A DNA stretch of 64,000 nt from assembly GCA_963733035.1 (NCBI GenBank), contig CAVTBU010000008.1, positions 32,001 through 96,000 of the forward strand, read 5' to 3'. Each line of letters starts with the position of its first letter. Position 1 is the first letter of the stretch. Position numbers and translations under genes: made by a program. Under the pieces are notes generated by a model, which did not search any database, was not told the DNA's origin, and was given only the letters and a program-made list of their open reading frames with translations. Shown here one piece after another: positions 38,174-54,987 of this stretch. Source of the stretch: Pirellulales bacterium. Its GTDB lineage: Bacteria; Planctomycetota; Planctomycetia; Pirellulales; PALSA-1355.

Positions 38174-38255
38174 GGAGGGTAAGCGAATGGCTAGCGGCGA
38201 CACTGGAAATGTCGTGCCGGGTAACCGGTTGCGGGTTCGAGTCCCGTGCCCTCCG
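38174..38255 (+). tRNA. tRNA-Ser(GGA)
   Basis: Acceptor GGAGGGT/GCCCTCC; anticodon arm CGACA-CTGGAAA-TGTCG; long variable arm; T arm GCGGG-TTCGAGT-CCCGT; CCA not encoded. Confidence 0.93.
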
Positions 38256-38257
38256 CT
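38202..38257 (+). repeat. Left att core, 56-bp direct repeat (3' part of tRNA-Ser)
   Basis: ACTGGAAATGTCG...CCCTCCGCT is identical to 54932-54987. Confidence 0.95.
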
Positions 38258-38308
38258 GTTTCGTAGCAATGACTTGCGTCGATGGTGGTATTGCACATTT
38301 CCGGTCGA

Positions 38309-39496
38309 TCAGGCGTGTTTTACTGCCAATTGACTGCCATTCTCGGAATGGTCGGCGATCATGAGTGAGTCCATCTTCGCCGCGGCGTCAATCTGCATAC
38401 TCGGCATGACGTGGGAGTAGGTATCCATCGTCAGGCTGATCTGTGAATGCCCTAACCGCTCTTGAACCACCTTCATGTGGACGCCCTGACTCAACAGTTG
38501 TGTGGCGTGCGTGTGCCGCAGATCGTGGAAACGGACCATACGGAGCCCTGCCCGCTTGAGTAGCGGCTTGAACTCGTCGGCGTGGAAATGACTCCGCCGC
38601 AGCGGTCCGCCGTGCTGGTTGGTGAATACGTGCTCAGAACCAGCCAAGCCAGCCGCCACGGTCGCCTTGCGATGCCCTGATAGCTTGTCGATGACCTTGG
38701 AGCCGATTACCACCAGCCGACGGCTCTTGGCGCTCTTGGGCTCGGCGAGGGCCAGCTTGCCGTCAATCTCGGTCAGTGTCCGCCTGACGGAAACCGTGCC
38801 AGCCGATAGATCGATATCGGACCACTGGAGTCCGAACAACTCGCCGATACGCAGCCCGGAGCCAATCGCCAGCCAGTACAGAGCCTCCAGGCGGTCACCA
38901 TCCGCCGCGGCCAACAGCCTACCTACCTCTGACGTGTCGAGCGGCGTGATCTCGCTTTTGGGCACCCTGGGGGGCTCTACGGCGTCACAGACGTTCCGAA
39001 CCACGAGTCCCCACTTGAGCGCCTGCTTGAGAGCACGGTGCAGCACAGCATGAGCCAGACGTCTTGGGTTCGGTCCAATCCCGTCGCGCTCCATTTCGGA
39101 GTAGAGCGCCTGGACGTGCACCGGGGTGAGCTTCTGGAGTCCCACGCCGCCGATTCGCGGGTTGATGTGATTCTTCACGATGGCCTTGTAATTGTAGAAC
39201 GTCGTAGCGCGTACGGTCATGCGGGCAACGTCGTCAAGCCACTTTCCCAGGTACTCGGCAACTGTCTTGCGGGACGGATCTACGAGAGTCCCGGTCAGCT
39301 TGGACGACTGCACGCGAGTCAGTTCATCCTGAACAGCCTTTTTCGTCTTGCCGTATACCGTCCTGCGCTTCCGCTTGCCGTCGGCACCGTAGCCGACGCT
39401 AATCATCGCACACCAACGCCCATCGGGTCGCCGATATACCGAACCTTCGCCACGCCCTCGACGCGCTCGGCGTTTACTCTTCGTTGCGTCGACCAT
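38309..39496 (-). CDS. int: Tyrosine recombinase / phage integrase
   Basis: RGRGEGSVY arm-binding N-terminus; GLRIGE, FHDLRHT, RLGHS and DTYSH catalytic motifs. Confidence 0.96.
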   Translation of the reverse strand: MVDATKSKRRARRGRGEGSVYRRPDGRWCAMISVGYGADGKRKRRTVYGKTKKAVQDELTRVQSSKLTGTLVDPSRKTVAEYLGKWLDDVARMTVRATTFYNYKAIVKNHINPRIGGVGLQKLTPVHVQALYSEMERDGIGPNPRRLAHAVLHRALKQALKWGLVVRNVCDAVEPPRVPKSEITPLDTSEVGRLLAAADGDRLEALYWLAIGSGLRIGELFGLQWSDIDLSAGTVSVRRTLTEIDGKLALAEPKSAKSRRLVVIGSKVIDKLSGHRKATVAAGLAGSEHVFTNQHGGPLRRSHFHADEFKPLLKRAGLRMVRFHDLRHTHATQLLSQGVHMKVVQERLGHSQISLTMDTYSHVMPSMQIDAAAKMDSLMIADHSENGSQLAVKHA

Positions 39497-39498
39497 CC

Positions 39499-39717
39499 TT
39501 ATTTCCTCCCCTTGGTTTTCACGAGTCGCAGTCCAAGAAATGCCGCCAGCTTCTCCGCGGTTCCAAGCAGAATATCTTGCTGCCCGGACATGAACCGGCT
39601 TACAACCGGCTGGGGCACGCCCGACTCTTTGGCGATTCGATAGTACGACAGTCCGCTATCGGTCACGAACTGCCGTATCTGGTCGGCCGTCATTGTGTCT
39701 ACCTGTTGCTTTACCAT
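39499..39717 (-). CDS. XRE/Cro-type HTH regulator
   Basis: SYYRIAKESGVPQPVVSRFMSG HTH; GGAG RBS; ends 2 bp before the integrase start. Confidence 0.85.
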   Translation of the reverse strand: MVKQQVDTMTADQIRQFVTDSGLSYYRIAKESGVPQPVVSRFMSGQQDILLGTAEKLAAFLGLRLVKTKGRK

Positions 39718-39723
39718 ACTCTC

Positions 39724-39737
39724 CAGTATATATACTG
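39724..39737. promoter_or_regulatory. Palindromic operator candidate
   Basis: Perfect 14-bp palindrome CAGTATATATACTG immediately upstream of the HTH-int genes. Confidence 0.45.
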
Positions 39738-40136
39738 ATCGCAATATGGTCAAGCGTTCAGTTGTGTCAAAAATCCCGCCCGGCGCCTTTTCACTGACGC
39801 CGGACGGGTCGCTGTCGGGGCCCGTCTTCACTCGGGTCCGGACCTAGGAGTTGGCTTGTCACTGGCTCACGCCCCTCAATCGCCGCGTGGCGTTCGCCCC
39901 CTTGCGCCTCGATGATCTTGGTTCCAAGTAGCAGCGCACACGCTCGGCCAGCAGGGACGCGTCAAAGGGCCCCTAGCGGCTGCCGACCCAAGTATCGCGT
40001 GGGTGGATTTGCGCGCGTTAGGCGGCGCGTGTGGCGCTCGACGCGCAGGCGATGGCATGGTCGCACCGCGAACCACCCACCGATCCCGACGCAGCGGATC
40101 ATGTGAACACCGCCCCTTCACGTCGCGCTGGAGGCA

Positions 40137-41915
40137 TCATTCGGTCCGCGCGATCTCAATTTCGCGTCCACCATCGACACAGAAAATCCTAAAGCGCACG
40201 ATTGCCTTGTCGTGAATCGCAGTGGTCAGCTCAGCCAGCTCGCTGACAGCCTTGGCACGCTCGCGATTGATCGGCAATTCCGTCTGCATTTGGACAAACA
40301 AGGTTTTCGCGCGTTCAATCCGCTGCAGAGCAGCCGCTTTCAACGCCGCGACCTGTGGTGCCGCCATGTTATCACCATACCGAGCTACTAGTGCATTCAA
40401 GTCAGCGGTGGAATTTTTTACCTCAGCTTCTGCCACCGGTATACTGGCGACTTGCTTCTCAACCAGCGAGTTTAGCTGTCGCAGTAATGTCTGCACTCGG
40501 TCGACTGTCCACGCGTACTCCTTCCGGTCGAACGGCATCATTATTGGCTCGAACCGCACCTGTAAAATGGACTTCCCCGTACCTGACAAGGAGATTTCGA
40601 TGCCGGCCTGTGGCAGTTCATCACGAATTGCGATTCGCAACTTGGAGCCCACCTTTGCAACACGGTCGCTCGGATAGAATGCCCGGGCCGTTGCGCCTTC
40701 GATGCTCAACACTTCAACACGCAGTGAGCGCGGATCAGCTACATCGACGTGCGACAATGTAATTGGGATGGAAGTTTTCGATCGAGTCAGATCGACGGCG
40801 ATCCCTTTGAGAATCAACGTATTTTGACGGTCAACCGAGGGCTTTTGCGAGTCTTTTTTCGGCTGAACCGGCCTACCCATGTCGGGTGACAGTGGCAGCT
40901 GTGTCGGATTGCTCGGAAGAAGCTTCTCTTGGACCTCTCGCTTCAGATCCGGATGGACATCGAACTGTTCCATAAGTTCGTCTACCGCGCGGAGACCAAG
41001 TCGTGTAGCAAGTAAAGGCTTTGAGTCCTTAATTTTGATTGCCTCGCTAATAGCCATCTCGTACAGCACGTAGCGCATCCAATTCTGCTCTTGTGTTTTG
41101 GCCGCGTTCAAATAGTCTTCTGGGTTAAGTTCACCTTCGACGGTGATCGCCTTTCTGGCCTTTGCCTGCTGCTCCGGAGTGGGAACCGGGAGCTTGCCGT
41201 TCCCATTCAATCCCCTGGGTGGCCTCGCGGTGGGGACGACTGGAAGCGTTCTGCCCTTAGTCAATTCGGCAGTGGGTTGCGGCACGTTGCTTGGTACGTT
41301 GTCTTGCCTTGCTCGCGGATTTGGCCTGAGCTGTGGACTGTTTTCGCGAATGGGTTTGTTCTGCTTTTTTGGCAGACCGGCGACCTTTGTGGGGTTGGTC
41401 CCCTGCGGCCTTCCGAGGACCTTGTCAAAATCGATCAAAAACGTTGCCGTAATCACGGCAGCAATTATCGCTACACCGCCGATGATGATTGCAACACCGT
41501 GGTTGCTGCGCCGTCGACGGCGCGGTACCGCGCGTATTCGCGGTTCGACGAACGTTGCGGGTGCCTGAACCGGCGTCGTCGCGGCGACGGCCGGCAATGG
41601 CGATGCGGCAAAATGAGGTGGGGGAGTGATGTCTTCAGGCGGCGACAGCTTTCGACGCAGCTGCTGATCGTATTCCACCTTTGAGGTGGGATTCAACAAG
41701 CAGACTTTCGCGCGAGCTATCTCATTCAGGATCCGCTGCGAAAGCTCAGACTGCGGGCCAATCTTGTAGCTTTGGATGTGCGCCATCTGGCGCTCGCCGG
41801 CAGACTGTATCACTTCCCTGTCGGATTCAAAGTGCTCCAGACCAAGCAACCGATAGTGGTCAGGTGGCTGGTTTTCTGGCCGAATTCCCAGCCACTTGTA
41901 GTATGGATCGAACAC
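40137..41915 (-). CDS. Membrane-anchored protein with N-terminal J-domain-like region (no HPD) and C-terminal coiled coil
   Basis: FDPYYKWLGI...DHYRLLGL...LNEIARAKVCLLNP...EYD; one transmembrane segment; GTG start at 41915 with GGAGG upstream. Confidence 0.75.
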   Translation of the reverse strand: MFDPYYKWLGIRPENQPPDHYRLLGLEHFESDREVIQSAGERQMAHIQSYKIGPQSELSQRILNEIARAKVCLLNPTSKVEYDQQLRRKLSPPEDITPPPHFAASPLPAVAATTPVQAPATFVEPRIRAVPRRRRRSNHGVAIIIGGVAIIAAVITATFLIDFDKVLGRPQGTNPTKVAGLPKKQNKPIRENSPQLRPNPRARQDNVPSNVPQPTAELTKGRTLPVVPTARPPRGLNGNGKLPVPTPEQQAKARKAITVEGELNPEDYLNAAKTQEQNWMRYVLYEMAISEAIKIKDSKPLLATRLGLRAVDELMEQFDVHPDLKREVQEKLLPSNPTQLPLSPDMGRPVQPKKDSQKPSVDRQNTLILKGIAVDLTRSKTSIPITLSHVDVADPRSLRVEVLSIEGATARAFYPSDRVAKVGSKLRIAIRDELPQAGIEISLSGTGKSILQVRFEPIMMPFDRKEYAWTVDRVQTLLRQLNSLVEKQVASIPVAEAEVKNSTADLNALVARYGDNMAAPQVAALKAAALQRIERAKTLFVQMQTELPINRERAKAVSELAELTTAIHDKAIVRFRIFCVDGGREIEIARTE

Positions 41916-42059
41916 TTTTCTGTCGCCTCCGTTTTTGCGTGCGTCTCCTCTGCCCTGCTCGCAAGCCCGGCGGCTTAGCACCTTGCCATGATACGAGCGG
42001 GCTCTTAATTGATCAACCTGACCCGAATTGCGGTAGTGTCCTAACAGTGAGGTGGTCCC

Positions 42060-42299
42060 GTGATTGATACCTATCCGCGTCATATCTTGGAGCTGATCGC
42101 GGCCTGCCGCCAGAATCGTGGCCTGGACCCTCGCGACGTACTGGATGCAATCGACGATCCCCAGTGGGAGCGGGCTTGCCACACTAACGACTGGCGTTCT
42201 GTTGTCGTGGATTCCGTCGTCGATATATGGCCTTTTTTGGGGGTTGAGGCGAGGTTGGTGGCCTATCTAACTGCTTCTGTCGAGGTGGCGATTCAGTAA
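42060..42299 (+). CDS. Small hypothetical protein
   Basis: 79 aa, starts just inside the left TIR; DPQW...NDWR...IW pattern reminiscent of small phage proteins (from memory, unverified). Confidence 0.45.
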   Translation: MIDTYPRHILELIAACRQNRGLDPRDVLDAIDDPQWERACHTNDWRSVVVDSVVDIWPFLGVEARLVAYLTASVEVAIQ

Positions 42300-42789
42300 T
42301 CTTTTTGGCTTGCTTTCGGATGAAATCATCCAGATATCCTACCGCCAGCTCGATGGATTGTCTCGAAGCGTGCAGGCGCTTGTAACCGTAGATTCGCTTT
42401 ACAAATTCCCGAATTGCCTGAACCTGCTGTTCAATCTCGATGTCATCCAGCGAAACGACACGCGGATGGTGCGCTGCATGATTGCGAATTAGTCTGAGCG
42501 CATCGAGCAGGTCGCACACTTCGTGAGCCAGGAGGCCAAAGGCCCGGCACATGGTTATTTTCATGCCGAACGAATAGAGCGGCGACGTAAAGGTATCTAG
42601 CAGCCTGCCTCGGAGATCTGAGTTCAGTCCTTCTCTTGCAAAAGTCTCCCGTAAAAGATCCTCCATTCGATCGTTCAATACCTCGCATCCGATTAGAGGA
42701 CATGCACGATCGGAATCAGACCACATCGCGCTGGTCGTAAGTAGCCAATCCACTAAGGATTTCTTACGTCTATTTTTCTTGCCGCTCAT
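42184..42789 (-). CDS. MtlR-like HEPN-superfamily protein
   Basis: SDR...LLR, PLYSFGMKI...FGLL and IRNHAAH (R-X4-H) motifs. Confidence 0.7.
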   Translation of the reverse strand: MSGKKNRRKKSLVDWLLTTSAMWSDSDRACPLIGCEVLNDRMEDLLRETFAREGLNSDLRGRLLDTFTSPLYSFGMKITMCRAFGLLAHEVCDLLDALRLIRNHAAHHPRVVSLDDIEIEQQVQAIREFVKRIYGYKRLHASRQSIELAVGYLDDFIRKQAKKITESPPRQKQLDRPPTSPQPPKKAIYRRRNPRQQNASR

Positions 42790-42871
42790 ACGTTAGCCCC
42801 TTGGGCGTGGCGTAGTGCGGTCCCTGCCTTATACGCTCACGGATTCGGTGTGCAAATCACCGCACGTCCAT

Positions 42872-43039
42872 TCAGCGGCGTTTAGCGGCCTTTAGAAGCA
42901 CCTCACGCGCCCAGGTGGACGTGTTGCCGTCTGCGGCCTTCTCAAGCTGCTTTAGCTCGGATTCGCTCAAGCGAATCTGAAAGCGTATGTCGCGTCGCTC
43001 CGCGTCGTCTTTTGGGGGTCTACCCCTTTGTGATTCCAT
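42872..43039 (-). CDS. Ribbon-helix-helix DNA-binding protein, 55 aa (below the ORF-track cutoff)
   Basis: Hand translation: MESQRGRPPKDDAERRDIRFQIRLSESELKQLEKAADGNTSTWAREVLLKAAKRR*. Confidence 0.75.
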   Translation of the reverse strand: MESQRGRPPKDDAERRDIRFQIRLSESELKQLEKAADGNTSTWAREVLLKAAKRR

Positions 43040-43045
43040 GACAGG

Positions 43046-43105
43046 ATTGTACAGACAAAAAATATTCGTGCAAGCTATTTACCGCCGATTAAATGTCTGT
43101 ACAAT
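43046..43105. promoter_or_regulatory. Divergent promoter region with 12-bp inverted operator repeats
   Basis: ATTGTACAGACA (43046-43057) and TGTCTGTACAAT (43094-43105) in AT-rich DNA. Confidence 0.6.
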
Positions 43106-43248
43106 AAATTATGTTGGGAACGGCAATTCCCAATAAAAAACCCCGACTCGGCCCTGGCAGGCTGAATCGGGGGACAAACAACCAGGCTCTCGCTAGGCTG
43201 CTGTGACAAGCCAATTCTAGCGGAAGCCGTAACCAAGGCTACCCCGCG

Positions 43249-44283
43249 ATGATGATGATTGCTTGTGCCCATGCGACGTTCCAGAAATACGGCAAAGACC
43301 GCAAGGGAAACCAGCGGTTTAAGTGCTCGCTGTGCGGCAAGCGATGGACGGAAGAACACGCCAAGCCGCTCGGCGAGATGCGCGTGCCGGTCGAAACCGC
43401 CAAACTCGCGCTCCGTCTGCTGACGGAAGGCATGAGCATCCGCGCCACGGAACGCACAACCGGCTTGCACCGAGACACGATTTGCAAACTGCTGGTGTTA
43501 TTTGGCGATGCCTGCCAGCGGTTTTTAGACGAGCGTATGCGTGGGCTCACACTGTCTCATCTGCAATTCGACGAACAGTGGACTTACGTCTACAAGAAAC
43601 AATCTCGGCTCACCACGACCGAGCGCGAGCGATCGAGCGAGCAAGGCGATATGTACTTGTGGACGTGAGTGGACCAGAAAACGAAGCTCATGCCCGCGTT
43701 CCTGATCGGCAAGCGTTCGGCCGACAATGCCCGCCGTTTTATGATGGACGTTGCGAACCGGCTGGTGTTCCCAAAGCCGCACCAGAGCGATGACCAGAGC
43801 TATACAAAGCCTGGATACCAGCCCATTACTCAAATTTCGACGGATGGCTTCCCGGCCTACCCCGAGGCCGTGGACCTGGCTTTCGGTCCCTACGTCAAGT
43901 TCGGCACGATCATAAAGGAGTACCGCAACGCGAGCATGATCTATACGCCCTCAGAAATGGTCGGTACGAAGCGGACGGGCGTTCGCGGGATAAGCGGCCG
44001 GAACCAGCGGACGATATGTACCTCGCACGTGGAGAGGTTGAACGGCACCCAGCGGCTATTTATGAAGCGTCTCAACCGGTTGACCTACTGCTTTTCCAAG
44101 AAACTACGGAACCTGGACGCGGCATTCGCCATGTTCGCGGCCTACTACAACTTTTGCTGGCAGACCCGCAAGCCGGGCAAGTCGGGGCAGAAACGGGGGA
44201 CCGCCGCGATGATGGCTGGACTGGCCGGCCACGTGTGGAGCTTCGACGAACTATTCGATGAGGCAATTGCCAAAATTGCCTGA
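43249..44283 (+). pseudogene. IS1-family DDE transposase interrupted by an in-frame TGA at 43666-43668
   Basis: Zn ribbon (CSLC), HTH (GMSIRATERTTGL), QFDEQW, ISTDG, HVERLN and RLTYCFSKK; both halves are in the same frame. Confidence 0.88.
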
Positions 44284-44331
44284 CCCCCCGTTATGGTTGA
44301 AGCCGGACGCACATTCGAGTAGTCTGCTGGC

Positions 44332-44919
44332 ATGATTTGTCGAATCGCACGTATATCGGCCGTTTTGGTATATTTCGCATTATCTGCGGACGCGCCTGCG
44401 CAAGACATAATTCAATTTACAAATCCACCCGGAAATGGCACCGTTCAACTGCAAATATGGCCGATGTCGGTCGCAGGACCGCAAGCCAATTTCATCCTAA
44501 AGCCCGGTCAAAGCATGCCGGTTCAGCTAGTATCGCAGGGAAAATTCAACATCCGCAGCCTGCAATGGAGCCCAGACGGGAACACCTGCACTCGCTGGCT
44601 CGTACAGAATTTGGATCTCCATGCGATCGCAGATGGATCAGTCCTATCGATCAAGCTTTATGCATCTCGGGAAGCGATGTGGGAGCGATTTGATGGGCAA
44701 TACATGCAGGTGGCAGTGCCTCCAGGAGATTCAAAATGCATCTGGGAATTCACGACAATACCGACGGCGGTAGAATCACCTCCCCTGCTGGAGCCGATAG
44801 AAACAGAGCCTGCGCCTACCGGTGTGCAGCAGTACGCAACTGTTTCCATGCCAGCTGGATGCCCGGTAATTGGGCATGATCCGCCGAGAGAACCAAAAAT
44901 CCCAAAACGTAAAAAGTAG
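44332..44919 (+). CDS. Secreted hypothetical protein (IS passenger)
   Basis: Signal-peptide-like N-terminus ending APA-Q; 195 aa. Confidence 0.65.
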   Translation: MICRIARISAVLVYFALSADAPAQDIIQFTNPPGNGTVQLQIWPMSVAGPQANFILKPGQSMPVQLVSQGKFNIRSLQWSPDGNTCTRWLVQNLDLHAIADGSVLSIKLYASREAMWERFDGQYMQVAVPPGDSKCIWEFTTIPTAVESPPLLEPIETEPAPTGVQQYATVSMPAGCPVIGHDPPREPKIPKRKK

Positions 44920-44934
44920 CAGGAAGGGATTGAT

Positions 44935-45543
44935 ATGGGGTCCGACGCAATTTGGGAAAAGCTGATGTCTCTCAGCATCGTTGCCGGCATGAATCAGCGG
45001 TATTCGCAGTACATGCTGACTAAGGCGGAGTGGTTCAGTAGTGCGATAGACGTTGCGGTTGTTGTCTTTACTATGCTCACCTTGGTTTTCGGGGTGGCTG
45101 CCTATTACAAGCCCGGGAATCTGATGCCCTTATTGCCATATTGGTGGAGCGGAACTGGATGGGGCGTATGGCGTGTTAAGTATAGTCGAATGGCTATCGC
45201 GATGTCGTTGTTCGCTGCGCTCAGTGGTGTGGTGCTCGTTGTCGTGCCAACAAACAAGTCAGTTCATTTCTATAGCACGATGCTTCAAAGCTGGAGCGAC
45301 CTGAGGCAGGACATAGATTCCGCAATTGTCGATTCCGACTCGCACACATTGATTTCCAATGAGCACGGTGAAATGTACCTGGAAAGGCGATATCGCGACC
45401 TGCTGGCAAAAAAGAATGCTCTAAATGCAAGGGAGCCATCTCCCGACCAAGAGCTTCTTGAGCATTTCTTAACGCTGGAAGAGCGGTCGAGGTCGGCCCA
45501 AGATGAAATAGCCGACCAGAAACCAGTCGCACTAAGGGAATAG
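44935..45543 (+). CDS. Two-transmembrane protein, SLATT-like (IS passenger)
   Basis: N-terminal helix, two hydrophobic helices, helical C-terminal tail (WSDLRQDID). Confidence 0.55.
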   Translation: MGSDAIWEKLMSLSIVAGMNQRYSQYMLTKAEWFSSAIDVAVVVFTMLTLVFGVAAYYKPGNLMPLLPYWWSGTGWGVWRVKYSRMAIAMSLFAALSGVVLVVVPTNKSVHFYSTMLQSWSDLRQDIDSAIVDSDSHTLISNEHGEMYLERRYRDLLAKKNALNAREPSPDQELLEHFLTLEERSRSAQDEIADQKPVALRE

Positions 45544-45567
45544 ACAGAGGCAATTCAGAACCACAAC

Positions 45568-45594
45568 AGCCCCGGCCCCCTGCCGGGGCTTTTT
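45568..45594 (+). terminator. Rho-independent terminator
   Basis: AGCCCCGGC-CCCCT-GCCGGGGCT followed by TTTT. Confidence 0.8.
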
Positions 45595-45616
45595 CATGCG
45601 CGATAGAATGGTGCCT

Positions 45617-45751
45617 ATGAGCGAGATTCATTTCACCTATCACGCGTCTTCGACCTGGCTGCCGTGGGCTGGGGTTGCGTTTGGGCTGGCCATGATCATC
45701 GGCTGCTCCGTAGCACTCTGGCGTGGCAGACGCCGACCACCTCAGTCCTAG
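45617..45751 (+). CDS. Putative 44-aa single-transmembrane peptide ending in the right TIR
   Basis: Hand translation: MSEIHFTYHASSTWLPWAGVAFGLAMIIGCSVALWRGRRRPPQS*; TAGAAT just upstream. Confidence 0.45.
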   Translation: MSEIHFTYHASSTWLPWAGVAFGLAMIIGCSVALWRGRRRPPQS

Positions 45752-45802
45752 GACACTACCCGAATTGCATGGGGTTTTGGATTCTGATAGCCTTTTTCTG
45801 CC

Positions 45803-47692: not shown

Positions 47693-47785
47693 TGTAAACA
47701 CCGCTCAATGTGCTGTTGGCGAAAACAGAGCCGCGGTTCGCGACGCCACGGCTCGCCGAATTGTCAAAGAGCCTCGCGAGACCAA

Positions 47786-48508
47786 TTACCTCTGTGGGTC
47801 AACTTCGATGTCGACGATTTCAGACAGCAGGACGGCTTGCCCGCGGCGGTCGTAGCACGTGTTTCCCTTGAGTGATGGCTGGCCGGCAAACACGTAGAAG
47901 ATCGCAGTGCGCAGAGCATCGGGCCGATCGGAAGGGCCGCGAAACTTCACAATACAAGGCTTGGACGCGTCCATGAGCTCGGCCATTAAGTCGATGCCGT
48001 AACACTCAGAACGGCAGATGTCCTCGACAAGCTCGGGAAACTCCAGGTAGGAGCGACTTACTTCCCGACTGAACACTGCATCGCGAACAAGCATCCCGAA
48101 TGGACCGGAATAACCGGCGGAAGACTCTCGCATTTTTTTCCAATGATGCCCGTTGTTGCCGGCGCCATGTTCGACCCTCTCGCGAAACTCGGCCTTTTGG
48201 TCTGCCACCAAGCGGTTGCCGATAAGACGGTCTACCATCTGCCAAATTCGCTCAGTCATTGCCTCGCGCGGCAGGATTCCCTCACGCCGAAAGGATTCCG
48301 GGGCGATCGTCCGGGTAGCATGGAACCAGTAGATCGCATCGAATGAGCAGTCACGACCGACCACCGCTTCCCAAAGCGCTTCCGGCCCATCCTCAAACGA
48401 CTTGCCGACTCGTTGCAGCCGATGCGTTAGTTCGTAATGCTCGATGCCAATGATCGAGCAAAGCGACTGAGTCGCGGACGTCAGATTTGAGCAGTCGAGG
48501 GTTTTCAC
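47786..48508 (-). CDS. Hypothetical protein, possible ADP-ribosyltransferase-like fold
   Basis: YWFHATRT...SFRREGILP resembles the H-x-T...G(I/L)xP start of ART-fold proteins. Confidence 0.45.
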   Translation of the reverse strand: MKTLDCSNLTSATQSLCSIIGIEHYELTHRLQRVGKSFEDGPEALWEAVVGRDCSFDAIYWFHATRTIAPESFRREGILPREAMTERIWQMVDRLIGNRLVADQKAEFRERVEHGAGNNGHHWKKMRESSAGYSGPFGMLVRDAVFSREVSRSYLEFPELVEDICRSECYGIDLMAELMDASKPCIVKFRGPSDRPDALRTAIFYVFAGQPSLKGNTCYDRRGQAVLLSEIVDIEVDPQR

Positions 48509-48514
48509 GGTTGG

Positions 48515-49192
48515 TCATCCTGCTTGTGGCTGCGAGTTGTACTTCTCCCGAAGGCCCAGGGACACAATGGCGAACGTCGTCAGGCAGTACGTGGCCAGAG
48601 CCCGGTTGGCCGCGATCGCGATGAAATGTTTTAGCCCTACCAATTCGTCCCCGGTAAGGAAGTGCGCGTCTAGCAAGCCCACGGCCAGGCGGTAAGCCGC
48701 GCCAGCTCGATACGCGTGAGTCTGCGGGTCGTCGCCATGCGGGTACAACTCCGCGCGGTGTTGGCCGTCTTCCGCCAATTGCACGAAATTGGCGGTCGCA
48801 TTGGTGGGTTTCGTGCAGCCGTCGCATTGGAACCTTTCGCCCTTTTCATCGAACCTTACGCGGCCGGCCCCTTCATGAACAAAATCGGCGAAAGCACAAG
48901 GGCCGGCGGGTGACGGCAGAAGACCCGCGTTGTTTGCGACTGTCAGAGCGATTCTCGCGGCCGTTTCCTCACGTGTGACGGGCATCTTGACCAGGACCGA
49001 CGGGGCCGCAGGCGTGAATTGCACGCAGGATTCGCCGACCTGATAGGTGCTTTCCAGACGGGGACGCCGCCGCAAGTCCTTCATGCCGACTTCGACGATC
49101 TCCATGAAGGGGAGCATCGCGAGTGCGGTCTTCGCAGGAATATAGGTTTCAAGTGACCCGAACGCTAAGTAGGAATTGGTTTGCGGGAGCAT
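48515..49192 (-). CDS. Hypothetical protein
   Basis: ORF co-oriented between terL and the ART-like gene; AGGA upstream of ATG 49192. Confidence 0.6.
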   Translation of the reverse strand: MLPQTNSYLAFGSLETYIPAKTALAMLPFMEIVEVGMKDLRRRPRLESTYQVGESCVQFTPAAPSVLVKMPVTREETAARIALTVANNAGLLPSPAGPCAFADFVHEGAGRVRFDEKGERFQCDGCTKPTNATANFVQLAEDGQHRAELYPHGDDPQTHAYRAGAAYRLAVGLLDAHFLTGDELVGLKHFIAIAANRALATYCLTTFAIVSLGLREKYNSQPQAG

Positions 49193-49275
49193 CTGTATCC
49201 ATCCTTGAGAGAAAGTTGAGGTTAAACGGAAACCGGGGCGACCGACGCAAGTTTCCCTGATGTTTGTGTGAGGAA

Positions 49276-50895
49276 TCACCAGCCATACATTTCATTTGGC
49301 AACATCAACGGCCGGGGTGCGGGACACTGAATAACCTCTTCGATGTGCATGACGGATGGTCCGCACCGCATCGCGTCCGCGGCAATGGGGATTGCGATCG
49401 ACAACGCTATCGCTCGGTCCGCGTGGCCCAAGATCTTGTCGCTGGGGGCCGTTAGCTTATAGCCGTAGCTCTTCTCGACAATTTGCAGCCGGCACAGATC
49501 AGTAATCAGGTCGGGCTCGCGATACAGTTCGACGGTTCGGCCACGAAACGCTTGCAGCAGCGTGCTTGCCATTGTGTCGAGATGCTTGCCGATGAAGGGA
49601 ACTTCAAGCATGTTCACGCCGTCACGTCGTAGCGACTGCGACATAAAGCTGGCTTGGTGAGGATCGTAGCCGATCGTCAATCCTCGAAACCGACGGGACG
49701 CCTCAAGCACGCAGTCCTTGACTAGCAACAGATCGACTTCGCCGCCGGGCTCAGGCGCCGAACTTTGGCAGTCGGCAAGATACATTCGCTCCGTGTCGCT
49801 ATCGACGGCCAGGACGACTAGGGCCGCGTGATCGCGCTTCACCCCAAGATCCAGGCCGGCCACATAACCGAATCGACCAGCGTAGTCTTCGATTGGACCG
49901 TCAAGCGTGATTGCGGCCTCGATATCTGCGACGTCCAGGCAATCGCCGCCGGAACTCCAGACCCCTCCGAACAGGCGATTGAAACGACTGGCGGTGCTTC
50001 GACGTCGGGCATCCTCGATGCCGGCAGGATCGTGATAGGGCGCAGGGCCCGTAATCGTTCGGAATTGCCAGCGTTCGGGCTGAGACTGCACTGCTTCGCG
50101 GAGTCGATATTGCCACGAGTCGACGTTGCCCGCGTTCATGGCAAGCATGACAAGTCCGTGGGGAACCTTTTCAGAGTTGTCCAACAAATTGAACACAAAT
50201 TCTTCTGAAACGATGCACGTCAGTTCATCGACGAAAAGCGCGTCGGGTAGCGCGCCTTGGCTTCCGGCTTCGTCGGCGGGAATGATTTCGGCGAGCGCCT
50301 CAGTGTCGGAGCACACGATTTGCCACTTGTCGACACGGACCCGGTTCGCAAGCCATGGCATCGCCTGGGTGATCTTGACGGCCGCCATCCGTACTTCAGC
50401 CGCTTGGTCTTTGTCCGCGGCCGCAATTTGAATCCGCAGCATGCGGCGTGAAAACGCGATCATCCACAGCACGGTCAAAGCGATCATCCACGATTTGGCG
50501 TAACCTTTGGTTGCCTCCAACCAGAACCGACGAATTGGGGCGGGTCGTCCCTGCATCGCGGCAATGGCGGCGGGCTCAAGCGCAACCAGCATGTCGCGCT
50601 GGGCGGGCACTTTGACGTCGCCGAAACGGCGCAGACCGGTAGCGGTGTGCACGGGCATGTCGTCCGCAAAATCCGCCAGGCTGCCGCGGTAGTGAGCAAT
50701 CTGATCCGGGGTCAGGTTTCGCATGGCTTGTAAACGCCGGGCAACCGCCACGCCTGGAGGGAGACGCAGCAGCGCCCAGCGCGCAAAAGTTTTAGTTGGG
50801 CTGGTGTGTCTCGGGTGACTGCGAATTGCCGCTAGGGCCGATTTGCTGGCCTCCAGGCTGCTTGCCGTCAGAGGTTGAGCTTTCATGCAATCCAT
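49276..50895 (-). CDS. Terminase large subunit-like protein
   Basis: TKGYAKS (Walker A variant), AAADKDQA, LFVDEL (Walker B); RNase H-like AGLDLGVKRD, GYDPHQA and HADRAIAL; alternative start 50724. Confidence 0.85.
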   Translation of the reverse strand: MDCMKAQPLTASSLEASKSALAAIRSHPRHTSPTKTFARWALLRLPPGVAVARRLQAMRNLTPDQIAHYRGSLADFADDMPVHTATGLRRFGDVKVPAQRDMLVALEPAAIAAMQGRPAPIRRFWLEATKGYAKSWMIALTVLWMIAFSRRMLRIQIAAADKDQAAEVRMAAVKITQAMPWLANRVRVDKWQIVCSDTEALAEIIPADEAGSQGALPDALFVDELTCIVSEEFVFNLLDNSEKVPHGLVMLAMNAGNVDSWQYRLREAVQSQPERWQFRTITGPAPYHDPAGIEDARRRSTASRFNRLFGGVWSSGGDCLDVADIEAAITLDGPIEDYAGRFGYVAGLDLGVKRDHAALVVLAVDSDTERMYLADCQSSAPEPGGEVDLLLVKDCVLEASRRFRGLTIGYDPHQASFMSQSLRRDGVNMLEVPFIGKHLDTMASTLLQAFRGRTVELYREPDLITDLCRLQIVEKSYGYKLTAPSDKILGHADRAIALSIAIPIAADAMRCGPSVMHIEEVIQCPAPRPLMLPNEMYGW

Positions 50896-51346
50896 CGCCG
50901 CGTTGCATCCAGACGGCGTCTGTGGGCAGCGCCCACGGGTCGACCGCTTCGCCGTCGGTGTCGAGTCCTAACCGTCGAATCGCCTTGTCGCGGGCATCGC
51001 ACGCCGCGGCCATCGTCGCCCAAAGGGCTTGCTGATCTGCCAGCGATGCATCCTTTCCCCTGTCTCGAAACGCTCGGGCGGCGTACAAGTAGCGCAACTC
51101 TGCACGCGTAGCCCCGTTGATAACTACTGCATGGGATGCGCCCACATGGCCGTGCAACTCGCAAACGGCATCTTCGAGCCCCCGTCGAAAGCGATTGACG
51201 GCCCCACGGACCCCCGGCATCCACTTGGGAACACCGCCGATCGTGAGGGCCGAGCGTAGACCGTGCAACATTCGATTGACGTTGCCCCGCGGTGCACCGC
51301 TGCGGTTCGGCTTGGAAGGCTCGTTTGGCAGTACGTTGGCAGTCAC
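50792..51346 (-). CDS. Terminase small subunit-like protein
   Basis: GAPRGNVNRMLHGLRS motif; helical body ending IRRLGL; directly upstream of terL. Confidence 0.6.
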   Translation of the reverse strand: MTANVLPNEPSKPNRSGAPRGNVNRMLHGLRSALTIGGVPKWMPGVRGAVNRFRRGLEDAVCELHGHVGASHAVVINGATRAELRYLYAARAFRDRGKDASLADQQALWATMAAACDARDKAIRRLGLDTDGEAVDPWALPTDAVWMQRGDGLHESSTSDGKQPGGQQIGPSGNSQSPETHQPN

Positions 51347-51396
51347 GTTTCACTAACCCTTTGCTAGTAGTAACTTACGGGGAGGCACAATCTACG

Positions 51397-51666
51397 CTAT
51401 GTCGTGCCGGCGCTCGCCCCTCCGCATCGGCAGCTTTCCTTGAGCCGTTCCAGATCCGCAGGGTCGATCCGCCTCGCAGATCCGAACCGGTAATAGGCCA
51501 ACTCGCCCCGGTCCATCAACTGGTACAGTGTCGTGCGCCCAAGTCCCAACAGGCTGGCAGCCTCTTTGACGGTCAGCAGCCGCTCGGATTGAACGTGCCG
51601 CGCCGTCAACTCGGGCAGCCCTGGATGGGGTTTGCAGGTGTCCCTGCGTGTGTGTGTGCTGCTCAT
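51397..51666 (-). CDS. Excisionase-like HTH protein
   Basis: LLTVKEAASLLGLGRTTLYQLMDRGEL...RRI. Confidence 0.88.
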   Translation of the reverse strand: MSSTHTRRDTCKPHPGLPELTARHVQSERLLTVKEAASLLGLGRTTLYQLMDRGELAYYRFGSARRIDPADLERLKESCRCGGASAGTT

Positions 51667-51690
51667 TTCCTGCCCCGCAATTTCGTCAGT

Positions 51691-51844
51691 GCATCGGTGC
51701 GGTCGATCTTGTATCGTTGCGACCTCTTTTCAAACGCATCGGTACGTACGGTACGGGGCCTCTTATAAGGCCCCCGTACTGTACCGATGCGACTGCACCC
51801 GTACGGCTGTGTACCGTTGCGGTGTACCGTTGCGTACCGATGCG
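51691..51844. repeat. Iteron-like array, putative replication origin
   Basis: GTACCG(A/T)TGCG at 51781, 51811, 51824 and 51834; inverted copy at 51735-51745; central GGGGCC-TCTTATAA-GGCCCC. Confidence 0.7.
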
Positions 51845-51845
51845 G

Positions 51846-53393
51846 TTAATTTTCATCGTCCACGACCCTGTAACCTTCGTAGCGGCGGCTGTTGGCCTTC
51901 GCGATTTCACACGGCTCCAGGTGGCCGGCGTCAAGCGCGGCGGCGAGCGCGGCGTCAAACGCTTGACCGTTGCGGCCGGTACGGGCGCGAATGTCTGTTT
52001 TGGTGCCTTGGTGGCCCGGCAGCTTGTGGCAGGCTTCGACAACCAGTTGCACGTCGCGCTCGAGCCCCTCGGCGCGCTTCTGGTCGGCCCGCTGTTCTTT
52101 GGCGGCCTCGGCCATGTCCGCGATGGCTGACGGCTCGAGGACCAATACGTGCCAGGTGCGGTTGCTGCCGGTGCCTTCGCAGATCTGCAAGCCGTGTAAG
52201 CCGCTGTGGCCAGCGCTGCCGCCGGTGACCATCCACAAGTGGTGCTCGCCGGTACCGGGCTCGTAGTCGCGTCTGCGGCTCAAGAGAAGCCATTGCCGGG
52301 CCCATTCGCTGGTACCGCTCCAAGAGACTTGCGTTAGCTCGGGCGGTGCGTGACGATTGTCGATGCCGCTTTTGCGAATGTGGTGGACCACGACCAGCGT
52401 GATGCCGATCTCTTCGCACATGCCTGACAGTTGACGTAGCTGCCGGCCGACTGCCATGAGGTTGCCGGCGTCGGCTGCGGCCAGCATGAAATACAGTGGG
52501 TCCACGATGGCAATTTCGATTCGTTCGCGCACCAGTGCACGGCGCAGGGCGGCCAGTTCGTCGGCGGCGTCGAGCCTGGGCACGACTGTGGTCCAAAACA
52601 AATTGCCAAGCTGGGCCAGCGTGGTGCCTTGGGCTGACGCGATGCGTTCCCCTGTTTCCCGCAGCGTCGAGCCGCCGCTTTCAGCGTTTGCGATCAGCAC
52701 GCGATAGGGTCGGGCGACTGAAAACCGGCCGAGAAACGGCTCGCCGCTGGCCAGGGCGATGCCCATCGCGACGCAGATCGTGCTTTTCATGCCCTTCAAC
52801 TGGGCTGCCACAACCATGGGCTGCCGTTCGGCCAGGATGCCTTCGATTGCGTACGTCGCTACATCATTTGTCGCGGCGAACGCAGGGCTGGGTGTCACGT
52901 CGATGCGAAACCCTTGGCTGTCGGCGGCGATGCCGTCCAGGTTGTCGCGGTGGTGGGCGTATGCTTCAGCGAATGGCTTCACTCGCAGATCTCGCAGAAA
53001 CGCCACGCCACTAAGATATCCCTCGCGTTTTGCTCGACAGTCGCGTGCCACGCGCAAGTAGTACGACGTGTTCGACGGCAGCGCATCGCCTGTGATGATC
53101 TCCGCCAGTTTCGCGGCGCCGCCGACGGCTTTGAGTCGGTCGGTGCGGGTCAATTCGCGGTGCAGGTTCGTCAGGTCAACGGGCTGCAGGTTCTCGCGTA
53201 GGGCCGCCATCGCCCCGAAGATTTCCGCATGCGGTTCGTGGTGAAAATCGGCGGCTTCGATTTGATGCTCGTCGATCACCCTAGGCAGCAGTAGACATGA
53301 TCGCAAGAGCATCTGCTCGCAGTGCTCGTCGCTGGGCATGCCCGCATCGAGAATCTCGCCATTTGTCCGGGCGCCGGCGCCGTTTTGCTTCAT
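51846..53393 (-). CDS. Replication helicase: DnaB N-terminal domain fused to AAA_25 (RepA-like) ATPase
   Basis: EQMLL...DF...HAEIF...PVD...VGG N-domain; AQLKGMKS, IVDPLY and VVHHIRK motifs. Confidence 0.85.
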   Translation of the reverse strand: MKQNGAGARTNGEILDAGMPSDEHCEQMLLRSCLLLPRVIDEHQIEAADFHHEPHAEIFGAMAALRENLQPVDLTNLHRELTRTDRLKAVGGAAKLAEIITGDALPSNTSYYLRVARDCRAKREGYLSGVAFLRDLRVKPFAEAYAHHRDNLDGIAADSQGFRIDVTPSPAFAATNDVATYAIEGILAERQPMVVAAQLKGMKSTICVAMGIALASGEPFLGRFSVARPYRVLIANAESGGSTLRETGERIASAQGTTLAQLGNLFWTTVVPRLDAADELAALRRALVRERIEIAIVDPLYFMLAAADAGNLMAVGRQLRQLSGMCEEIGITLVVVHHIRKSGIDNRHAPPELTQVSWSGTSEWARQWLLLSRRRDYEPGTGEHHLWMVTGGSAGHSGLHGLQICEGTGSNRTWHVLVLEPSAIADMAEAAKEQRADQKRAEGLERDVQLVVEACHKLPGHQGTKTDIRARTGRNGQAFDAALAAALDAGHLEPCEIAKANSRRYEGYRVVDDEN

Positions 53394-53590
53394 GGCTGGG
53401 AATCCTTTCCGTCAGCTGTCGTCAATCCGACAAGGCGACAGCCGCACGTTCGCAAGAGCACTTTCGCAGCATGACGCAGCGAACGAAGCCGTTCGGACGG
53501 TGTGTCACCTCGAACGGCGAGCGTCGCCTCGAACCGCTCGGCCAGCGGGCGGCGCTCGACTTTCATCTGATGGCTGGGTAGGCTGTTCAT
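53390..53590 (-). CDS. Small hypothetical protein
   Basis: 4-bp overlap with the helicase start; RLRSLRHAAKVLLRTCGCR. Confidence 0.6.
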   Translation of the reverse strand: MNSLPSHQMKVERRPLAERFEATLAVRGDTPSERLRSLRHAAKVLLRTCGCRLVGLTTADGKDSQP

Positions 53591-53644
53591 GTTCGATCCA
53601 TCGGCGGCCGGTTTCCTTTTGCCAGCGGGGGCCGGCCGCTATTT

Positions 53645-53830
53645 TTAGCTTTTCCGTGCCGGCCGACGATTGGTGGCTGCCGACGTGAACCTTACAGTCA
53701 CGCCGAGCCTACGCAGGTTTCTCACGGCGTCGGCTGCCACTTCAAAATCACCCCTCGACCTTGCTGCCTCCAGCACTGCAAACCAAGCGGTTGGCGAATC
53801 TGTCGGGTCGTCTTTTTCGTGCCGCGCCAT
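53645..53830 (-). CDS. Small hypothetical protein
   Basis: AAGGAG RBS; SPTAWFAVLE...LRRLGVTVRF. Confidence 0.65.
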   Translation of the reverse strand: MARHEKDDPTDSPTAWFAVLEAARSRGDFEVAADAVRNLRRLGVTVRFTSAATNRRPARKS

Positions 53831-53883
53831 CGCGATTTTCTCCTTCTAGATAATCACCACTGGATTAGCCGGCTAATGCCAAT

Positions 53884-53918
53884 GGGAAAACAAGAAACCC
53901 GCGAAAACACGCGGGTTT
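53884..53918 (-). terminator. Putative intrinsic terminator
   Basis: AAACCCGCG-N6-CGCGGGTTT hairpin followed on the minus strand by CTTGTTTTCCC. Confidence 0.5.
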
Positions 53919-53953
53919 GAGTAGAAAAAGAATATTCAGCGTTAGCCGACCGG

Positions 53954-54661
53954 CTAGTCCGCCGGAGCGACGGCCTCAAGGGTGCCGTCGCTGGACTTCA
54001 TACCACGTGGAATATTGGCGTTCATTGCCGCGCGTGCAATCAGATACCGCCGCCATGTCTTTTTGTACATGGTTGTGCGACAGACTTGGGCTTCATCCAT
54101 GATTTTGGCGTCAGACCAATCGGGATGTGCCGCAAGCAGCCCTAACGCCGTCGCTAGTTTTGTCATTCCCGATCGCCCAGCGGTTCGCTGTTCGCTGTCT
54201 GGCGACAGCCTCTTACGCATCCAGTCGAGTAGATCCTTCGCGGCGCGCTCGAGGTCTGGCAGTCGCGCCAGTCGTCGGCCGGACATGAGCCGAAGATCTG
54301 GAGGGCCGATAGTTGGGCACTTGGCCGTCGTGAGGCGGGGAAAATCACGCTGCCTCAAGTATTCGAGAACACGGTACGCGTTGCGTAGTTGTAACGCTGC
54401 GAACTCACTGGCGGTGTTTGGACGGTATTTTTCCGCGTTATCCCGAAACCCAACAATCATTGCGACCATCGTCTCAAACCAGGCTAGAACATCCTCCAGG
54501 GTATCGAGTGGCATGTCGTACCACCGTCCTTCCCAGCCGACAAGAAAGCGCGTAGCCGAGGGCGCATCGGCTAACGTCAGAATCGGCTGCGTCTTCGCCT
54601 CTGGCGACTTTCGGGTCCGTTTCTTCTTGCTGGTGGCGCGGCCATTCTTGTCCTTGGCCAT
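53954..54661 (-). CDS. Hypothetical protein with C-terminal HTH-like segment
   Basis: GGAGG RBS before ATG 54661; WSDAKIMDEAQVCRTTMYK. Confidence 0.65.
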   Translation of the reverse strand: MAKDKNGRATSKKKRTRKSPEAKTQPILTLADAPSATRFLVGWEGRWYDMPLDTLEDVLAWFETMVAMIVGFRDNAEKYRPNTASEFAALQLRNAYRVLEYLRQRDFPRLTTAKCPTIGPPDLRLMSGRRLARLPDLERAAKDLLDWMRKRLSPDSEQRTAGRSGMTKLATALGLLAAHPDWSDAKIMDEAQVCRTTMYKKTWRRYLIARAAMNANIPRGMKSSDGTLEAVAPAD

Positions 54662-54931
54662 GAGAACCTCCATCTGTCGCGGGCGAGCGCCGGGCCGAAG
54701 GCCACCAGATGGAGAGAGTGGCCACTCGGCCGGGCGCTCGTCGGGGATCAATCCGACGACCCGCAGTAACTTAGTCCGCCAGATTCTACCAACCCGGATC
54801 TGTTTTGACTGCCAATATACTGCCAAACCCACGCATGCACCGGAAATCCGCGGACACGTGCGGACGACGCAAGACATTGATCTGACAAGCTTTGAACAAC
54901 TGCGAACAATCGCGAACAACGCTCCAACGCA

Positions 54932-54987
54932 ACTGGAAATGTCGTGCCGGGTAACCGGTTGCGGGTTCGAGTCCCGTGCCCTCCGCT
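54932..54987 (+). repeat. Right att core (duplicated tRNA-Ser 3' part)
   Basis: 56/56 identity to 38202-38257. Confidence 0.95.

Follow-up and report, generated by a model that had tools for sequence, protein, structure and literature searches.

We analysed a window of 64,000 nucleotides from a Pirellulales bacterium (assembly GCA_963733035.1, contig CAVTBU010000008.1, positions 32,001 to 96,000 of the forward strand). An original prediction, made from the sequence alone, had placed between window positions 38,202 and 54,987 a satellite-like element with genes for both terminase subunits, TerS and TerL, and no recognisable capsid, portal or tail gene. The element is bounded by perfect 56-bp direct repeats, the attachment (att) cores, at a tRNA-Ser(GGA) gene (Table 1). 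The two copies are spaced by 16,730 bp, or 12,993 bp after subtraction of 3,737 bp for a nested insertion sequence (IS) and its target duplication, the sizes first given.

Table 1 Features of the element and its integration site, in window coordinates. ORF, open reading frame; HTH, helix-turn-helix; IHF, integration host factor.
Feature	Coordinates	Strand	Basis or remark
tRNA-Ser(GGA), integration target	38174..38256	+	ARAGORN
att core at the tRNA end, 56 bp	38202..38257	+	perfect direct repeat; equals 3' part of tRNA-Ser(GGA)
CAA-N4-TTR motif in left arm, IHF-site-like	38267..38276	+	motif scan
Tyrosine integrase, 395 aa	38309..39496	-	PF00589 1e-27, PF14659, phrog_1 1e-82
Left arm repeat pair, 11-bp spacing, likely integrase arm-type sites	38321..38342	+	repeat search; overlaps int 3' end
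XRE/HTH_3 regulator	39499..39831	-	PF01381 4e-7; true start probably later than ORF start
Cargo protein, ~592 aa	40137..41915	-	no Pfam match
IS1-family element with passenger genes, 3,729 bp	42032..45760		terminal inverted repeats, 8-bp target duplication
IS passenger, weak HEPN-like/DUF4145 similarity	42184..42789	-	Pfam, below cut-off (E 0.003-0.005)
IS passenger, ribbon-helix-helix-like, 55 aa	42872..43039	-	family scans
IS1 transposase, in-frame stop at 43666-43668	43249..44283	+	NF033558
Two IS passenger ORFs, 195 and 202 aa	44332..45543	+	no family match
Cargo Hsp70-family protein, 629 aa	45803..47692	+	PF00012 7e-123
Hypothetical ORF, 240 aa	47786..48508	-	no family match
Orphan ORF past terL, 225 aa (254 aa from upstream GTG)	48515..49192	-	no relatives
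TerL, large terminase, 482 aa (ORF opens at 50895)	49276..50724	-	phrog_9 3e-18
TerS, small terminase, 184 aa, predicted HK97-like fold	50792..51346	-	family model and position
Third arm-repeat pair, inverted, over predicted terS start codon	51323..51345	-	repeat search
CAA-N4-TTR motif directly upstream of terS arm pair	51354..51363	-	motif scan
Xis, excisionase-family HTH protein, 89 aa	51397..51666	-	TIGR01764 5e-15
Iteron-like repeats around hairpin, likely replication origin	51740..51845		repeat scan
Replicative helicase, 515 aa	51846..53393	-	DnaB N-terminal domain and AAA_25
Two small ORFs (66 and 61 aa)	53390..53830	-	61-aa ORF found again in two other elements
Hypothetical ORF, 235 aa, first gene past attR	53954..54661	-	no PHROG match
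Right arm repeat pair, 11-bp spacing	54806..54828	+	repeat search
Distal att core, 56 bp	54932..54987	+	perfect direct repeat

From the distal att core, the minus strand carries the 235-, 61- and 66-aa ORFs, the helicase, the iteron cluster, Xis, TerS, TerL, two orphan ORFs, cargo, the XRE regulator and the integrase, in this order. The predicted integrase, XRE, helicase and xis genes were each borne out by a family match, and GC content falls from ~0.60 to 0.53-0.56 across cargo and IS. No primase domain was found in the replication module of this copy by domain scans. As for the predicted origin, six of the element's 15 GTACCG/CGGTAC copies do cluster at 51740-51839, flanking a hairpin with an AT core; that this cluster beside the helicase gene serves as replication origin is likely. 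A genome of the same genus (G487) has the same tRNA gene and downstream genes without the element, with ~3 kb of other DNA in between.

Terminase genes without a head

TerL was confirmed by its PHROG match and by its motifs: the Walker A lysine, Walker B glutamate, coupling motif and three nuclease aspartates are intact in the window copy. Among 8,000 candidates scored, 76 other homologues were found, and the catalytic motifs are invariant in their alignment. The best PDB match of the TerL profile was 6z6d (E 6.5e-13), which we take to be HK97 TerL.

The ORF upstream of terL had no Pfam, PHROG or NCBIfam match at E 0.1, and a Pfam scan of 63 members of its family gave no common family. All 72 ORFs of this family (duplicates counted) lie upstream of terL and are co-oriented with it. 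In a structure search with the predicted model (predicted local distance difference test, pLDDT, 80), HK97 TerS (8pop) ranked second of 48,161 chains, with a root-mean-square deviation of 2.2 over 88 residues and a Z-score of 8.7, which is under the tool's level for helical bundles; the top rank went to a helical membrane subunit with no relation to it (Z 9.8). Among the 15 best viral structure matches, six were named TerS (E 0.1-0.4; Foldseek E-values were 0.1 or worse), and the Atlas lead was to Terminase_4 clusters (0.93; 28% of members). Because position, conservation and three leads agree, this ORF is very likely TerS, though each signal is modest. The pair has the marks of an HK97-type terminase: a TerS fold, with a score modest for a helical protein, and a TerL of the Terminase_1 group. 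A promoter scan ahead of terS found none. In the available text of PMC11331095, an HNH protein stimulates HK97 cos cutting and HK97 TerS binds next to cos; beside the terS-terL genes of this element, neither Pfam and PHROG scans nor a pattern search found an HNH gene.

The main ORFs gave no capsid, portal or tail match in Pfam, PHROGs or NCBIfam, nor any match to a protease, head-tail connector or lysis gene. Capsid and portal models built from sister elements found none here either, and the predicted lack of recognisable head and tail genes thus held, while the same tools detected a capsid in eight sister elements and a portal in six. The host genome had no phrog_10 capsid and no phrog_12 portal (assembly 92% complete).

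We read the element as a satellite that would load its own DNA, by its own motor, into the procapsids of a helper, and give this mechanism a probability of roughly 60%. One alternative is that the 225-, 240- or 235-aa ORF is an unrecognised capsid or capsid-remodelling protein, a concern raised with the original prediction. None of them proved to be a capsid. All three lack relatives among the fetched loci, and for the 225-aa ORF the sole match among 1,560 candidates was itself, with no usable Atlas match and an unusable model (pLDDT 36). A shell gene would be family-wide, yet the genes after terL vary between clades; the true capsids and portals of sister elements were readily detected, and at 450-576 aa and 413-834 aa, respectively, both are longer than the 225- and 235-aa orphans. 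We regard a hidden shell as very improbable.

Head genes across the family

Of 301 genomes from the order, the TerL profile matched 47 at E 1e-20, with 41 of these below 1e-40; of 401 genomes from the phylum, it matched 24. Flanks were fetched for matches on longer contigs, and 34 of the 131 regions examined had TerL inside a tRNA-anchored repeat. Removal of two 12-bp chance repeats and two duplicates left 30 elements, a set biased toward tRNA sites and long contigs. These att-bounded elements measure 9.3-25.2 kb, have exact repeats of 19-61 bp and occupy 19 tRNA isoacceptors. PHROG scans covered 276 called ORFs of the 29 other elements, with integrases, helicases and TerL left out, and the family-built capsid and portal models were run on all ORFs of at least 60 aa.

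An HK97-type capsid was found in eight of the 30 elements, six of which also have a portal; the remaining 22, the window's included, have neither, so that homologous elements mostly lack capsid and portal genes, contrary to a possibility raised with the original prediction. TerS lies beside TerL in 29 of the 30. Degenerate TerL homologues, another possibility raised beforehand, were not the rule: the motifs are intact in all 27 full-length copies, and 19 of the 22 TerLs from capsid-less elements show the whole length and the complete motif set. Six of the 22 elements retain a single accessory gene of head or tail-like type.

Several observations on related loci were made in passing. Tape-measure-like genes occur in capsid-bearing members without other tail genes (for example L206, L175, L190 and L173), an ERCC4-type nuclease gene in 7/30 elements, and a clade-specific 155-aa gene after terL in two capsid-less clades. 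The host genome holds a second capsid-less element (L001, G000:C9:212700-223200) with a TerL of the same family (35% identity), a different gene in the terS position, a DUF2213-like gene, serine recombinases and a capsid C-terminal fragment. Within one family of the class, 16 of 20 sampled genomes carry a more remote TerL relative (L108-L115, L121). At L108, the only locus scanned, head genes are absent after it, and it is possibly a domesticated solitary terminase.

Recurrent change and purifying selection

A TerL tree of 95 rows was computed with a quick LG+G4 run that left out broken TerLs and most of one distant clade. Capsid-less and capsid-bearing states are intermixed on it, with at least six changes among 44 labelled rows, and a single capsid-less clade was rejected by the approximately unbiased (AU) test (p-AU 2e-9, 20 capsid-less rows held together among 48). 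Since the states intermix and a single grouping is rejected, loss or gain of head genes is recurrent; the root gives no direction. For the same reasons, the distinct satellite class that had been proposed stands in part: the layout is real and recurrent, while the elements are a family with a spectrum of head-gene content rather than one clean class.

Capsid-less clades with SH-aLRT support of 99 span different integration sites (L037 at Arg and L038/L039 at Thr; G156a at Arg and G452C1 at Ser). For the capsid-less pair L038/L039, nonsynonymous (dN) and synonymous (dS) divergence of terL were 0.117 and 1.88, a dN/dS of ~0.06; this ratio is rough, as dS is near saturation, and the pair are not close relatives of the window copy. 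The corresponding values were 0.176 and 1.52 for terS and 0.17 and 2.66 for the integrase, whose ratio is similar to that of terL. Near-saturated synonymous sites, low terL dN/dS and varied att sites show that capsid-less clades are old and under purifying selection on terL. The relaxed selection and breakage of packaging genes expected of a defective prophage were not seen, judging by this one pair and by the 19 of 22 intact TerLs.

The strongest single control is a 14,847-bp element of the same-genus genome G560 (L254:2993-17897, G560:C196) at the same tRNA-Ser att core. Its integrase is 74% identical to that of the window, its Xis 42% and its TerL only 23%. The packaging module consists of a canonical HNH, a phospholipase D (PLD)-type nuclease, terS and terL, and no capsid or portal was found among the 13 ORFs scanned. 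The function slot was kept, not the gene lineage, and the layout outlived a terminase swap.

These data bear on a second alternative, that capsid-forming satellites or prophages are repeatedly eroded, with capsid-less copies as dead ends and terL as the last gene to go. The intermixing of the two states would suit it, and so would the gradation in head-gene loss, which has the look of erosion in stages: there are elements with a capsid and no portal (two), with a head protease only (4/22), with a DUF2213 gene (one) and with a weak tape-measure match (one). TerL is split in 3/22 capsid-less vs 0/8 capsid-bearing elements, and the window copy has gained an IS whose own transposase is broken. The assemblies with split TerLs, however, also have fragmented helicase or integrase genes, and the breaks therefore fit sequencing error. 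Erosion also sits poorly with a capsid-less majority, with the saturated synonymous sites, low dN/dS, different att sites and exact repeats of the capsid-less clades, and with the recurrence of the layout around an unrelated terminase pair in G560. We hold it to be improbable. The window element is real, intact, recurrent and selected, and not a one-off deletion, in line with the reading as a satellite with its own motor.

Arm-type repeats at the terS start

Apart from the arm pairs at both ends, a third pair, which the original prediction had not noted, covers the predicted terS start codon. The arm motif was derived from each element's own ends and the interior was then scanned for the best pair. 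In 15 of 27 elements this pair fell at the conserved TerS anchor (three of the 30 lacked motif or anchor), against 0.45 expected, within a positional range of -200 to +20 that was set after part of the data had been seen. Foreign dissimilar motifs did so 21 times in 606. The pair was at terS in 12/19 capsid-less and 3/8 capsid-bearing elements. Across 20 elements, arm-motif similarity tracked the integrase (Mantel rho 0.23, p 0.003, a guide only as related elements are not independent) and not TerS (p 0.89) or TerL (p 0.34).

A CAA-N4-TTR motif, which we take to resemble the IHF consensus, lies upstream of terS at 23 of 62 loci (9% at random; 18/62 on the other strand). Of 60 att arms, 15 have it (7% at random). 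A tighter form, read off the same data, was present in 20/62 vs 1.4%. A long dyad pattern upstream of terS fitted 6/69 loci and 1/60 att ends and was dropped.

That the repeats are TerS sites is disfavoured, because they follow the integrase and because a terminase-less element of the host has a similar pair. This element (L003, G000:C7:729800-742000) forms an island at tRNA-Ser(CGA); it encodes Xis, a P4-type primase and an integrase that shares 59% identity with the one in the window, and lacks a terminase of the family described here. The pair lying on terS is likely a link between recombination and packaging; on the simplest reading, a putative integrase-IHF complex sits on the packaging start, with repression as its putative effect. 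The integrase of P4 acts as a repressor through recombination sites. KplE1 IntS likewise represses its own promoter via attL, and in the available text single arm-site mutations mostly left repression in place (PMC2951348). Its sites, however, are the att region, controlling int, whereas the extra pair described here lies 3.5 kb inside the element, on the packaging genes, where it would repress by analogy. In the phage-like contigs L065 and L071, a short tyrosine recombinase gene lies directly upstream of terS, which may be another tie between a recombinase and the packaging start.

Cargo, nested IS and a possible role in defence

The ~592-aa and Hsp70 genes form a divergent cargo pair, split by the IS1 insertion. 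The N-terminal domain of the ~592-aa protein has three paralogues in the host genome, one of them adjoining an Hsp70 gene. The IS1 has four passenger genes, one HEPN-like, one ribbon-helix-helix and two of no family; two likely membrane helices were noted in one of these genes. On contig C5, a close paralogue of the IS1 has a sense codon where the window's transposase has its stop, and readthrough was rejected on this ground. The original prediction had not noted this stop. Elsewhere in the host genome, large tRNA gene arrays with 44 tRNA calls were found (G000:C6:241000-268500).

A third alternative is that TerS and TerL are kept as anti-phage weapons or decoys (jamming or titrating portals, cutting concatemers), or to package flanking host DNA, with spread by other means or incidental. 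Purifying selection without a shell is explained equally well in this way, repression by an integrase site on terS would fit genes that are dangerous as a pair, and the cargo is partly defence-like, with the weak HEPN-like match here and patatin-like and methylase genes in related elements. Against this, PADLOC defence models gave no match below E 0.01 for eight window ORFs. Both ATPase and nuclease motifs are kept, TerS accompanies TerL in nearly every element (29/30), and replication and integration modules go with the terminase genes. Moreover, no conjugation gene turned up in the PHROG scans of the sister elements, so that capsids are the evident transfer route. We therefore consider a weapon or decoy unlikely, and keep to the reading as a satellite with its own motor.

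Candidate helpers

Planctomycete phages are barely known; one distant match was found among 50,697 phage records. Three viral contigs (L059, L065, L071) combine this TerS/TerL family with a head protease and a portal of lambda type; a capsid-like gene is also present in L059 and L065. Because they share the terminase family together with portal and protease, phages of this kind are candidate natural helpers.

The host also has a head-tail cluster (L242, L243; G000:C6:451000-474000) with terS, terL (phrog_38), a lambda-type portal, protease, decoration, capsid and tail gene, no integrase and host-like GC, which may be a gene transfer agent (GTA)-like system. Portal, protease and capsid are frameshifted in the host and intact and syntenic in four relatives, and the cluster TerL occurs in 185/301 genomes of the order, mostly as a single copy. 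Homologues of its portal (32-37%) and capsid (42-52%) occur in the L059/L065/L071 group, and the best matches of the protease are proteases of capsid-less sister elements. This resident cluster is a possible helper. Its TerL was present in 10/12 genomes with a capsid-less element and 5/7 with a capsid-bearing one, vs 185/301 overall, a count from genomes too few and too closely related to show a link. A complex prediction of the window TerL with the intact cluster portal of a same-genus genome gave no answer (score 0.00). A version of the satellite reading in which the element parasitises the host's domesticated GTA-like cluster, instead of or besides a phage, and its integrase acts as packaging switch, appears doubtful to us.

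Comparison with known satellites

To our knowledge, known satellites either borrow motor and shell, like P4, the phage-inducible chromosomal islands known as PICIs, and PLEs, which are PICI-like elements, or make motor and head and borrow only tails, like capsid-forming PICIs (cf-PICIs). The features of a PICI-type element, namely integrase, att repeats, a size of 10-20 kb and a replication module (helicase), are all present here.

The following comparisons hold as far as the available text of the sources goes. The component that tells cf-PICIs from PICIs is terL (PMC10085698). With cf-PICIs the element shares size (10-20 kb), integrase, replication module and its own TerS and HK97-type TerL (10.1101/2022.09.08.507074, PMC10085698). 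Like them it has no tail or lysis genes in the family scans, and six to eight sister elements have a capsid with or without a portal and no tail tube or lysis match. Unlike them it has no detected capsid, portal, protease, connectors or small HNH, and would need a whole head, whereas cf-PICIs take only tails; cf-PICI clades are also deep and separate from phages, whereas this TerL family is common to phage-like contigs and capsid-less members. Classical PICIs, including the Staphylococcus aureus pathogenicity islands (SaPIs), likewise have an integrase, regulator, replicase, TerS and cargo and depend on helper capsids (PMC10085698), as this element would. Of the terminase, they bring TerS at most and rely on the helper for TerL, whereas terL is present and intact here. 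The core genes of the element all run one way, with int downstream of the cargo and the XRE gene upstream of int, a gene order unlike that of a standard PICI, and no AlpA or divergent stl/str switch was seen (the Xis-type HTH protein matched the AlpA model at E 0.04 only).

PICI-like tycheposons are also tRNA-integrated, 10-20 kb in size and equipped with integrase, Xis and helicase or primase; they carry a capsid gene or terS, and terL is not described for them in the available text (10.1101/2020.12.28.424599). The small, helper-dependent Pseudomonas satellite phiAH14b (16.8 kb) similarly lacks structural genes but has no terminase (PMC4936722). Mycobacterial EPIPs, also small and helper-dependent, resemble some sister elements in having a tape measure gene along with terS, but only the small terminase subunit is listed for them (PMC12822802). 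The archaeal SRCE/pSSVx elements keep a packaging-type ATPase and lack a capsid protein, but are plasmid-derived parasites of spindle-shaped viruses whose ATPase is unrelated and not a tailed-phage terminase (10.1101/2025.02.15.638363). In the open literature we found neither a satellite with terS and terL alone nor an arm site placed on terS, though subscription papers and supplements may list such variants. The element functions like a PICI in these respects and yet fits neither PICIs nor cf-PICIs; it is best called a variant of phage satellite.

Proposed life cycle and its significance

In the proposed cycle, integrase and Xis would recombine the two 56-bp cores to a circle, which the helicase would replicate from the adjoining iteron cluster. 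TerS would mark a packaging site near the start of its own gene, as HK97 TerS does beside cos, and TerL would cut and pump the DNA. A planctomycete phage or the host head-tail cluster would supply heads, portal, tails and lysis in trans. Through integrase bound at the third arm pair, beside the IHF-like site, the packaging genes or site would stay closed as long as the recombination machinery has not been redeployed. With a whole motor of its own, the element would be free from fitting a helper terminase and would need only a portal on which its TerL can dock.

Several results weigh against this cycle. For capsid-less members, neither an excised circle nor a junction or particle was found, and three viral scans gave no free circular member of this kind; the sole circular contig (L064) is capsid-bearing. 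One low-depth soil sequencing run, which shared a small fraction of words, gave short contigs inside the element and on its flanks and no att joint; no RNA run was listed among the holders. The small HNH gene was found by pattern in none of the 30 elements, and the arm pair was not seen at terS in 12 of 27 elements, nor in G560. The modest TerS scores, the graded head-gene content, the split TerLs, the rejected single origin and the roughness of the selection estimate count on the same side. The viral contig L064 itself, from a virus collection and 13.5 kb long, has a terminal repeat of 127 bp and genes for an integrase, a helicase, TerL, capsid and portal; it is a circular, capsid-forming and cf-PICI-like member of the family.

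If the satellite reading is true, an element with the motor alone fills the missing cell between satellites that borrow motor and shell and those that borrow only tails, and a foreign TerL can dock on a helper portal. The arm pair on terS bears on how such a satellite avoids packaging the chromosome before excision. Satellites of this kind would escape current detection models, and many islands now classed as prophage remains may be active. They would also provide a route of gene transfer in the planctomycetes, a group with hardly any known phages.

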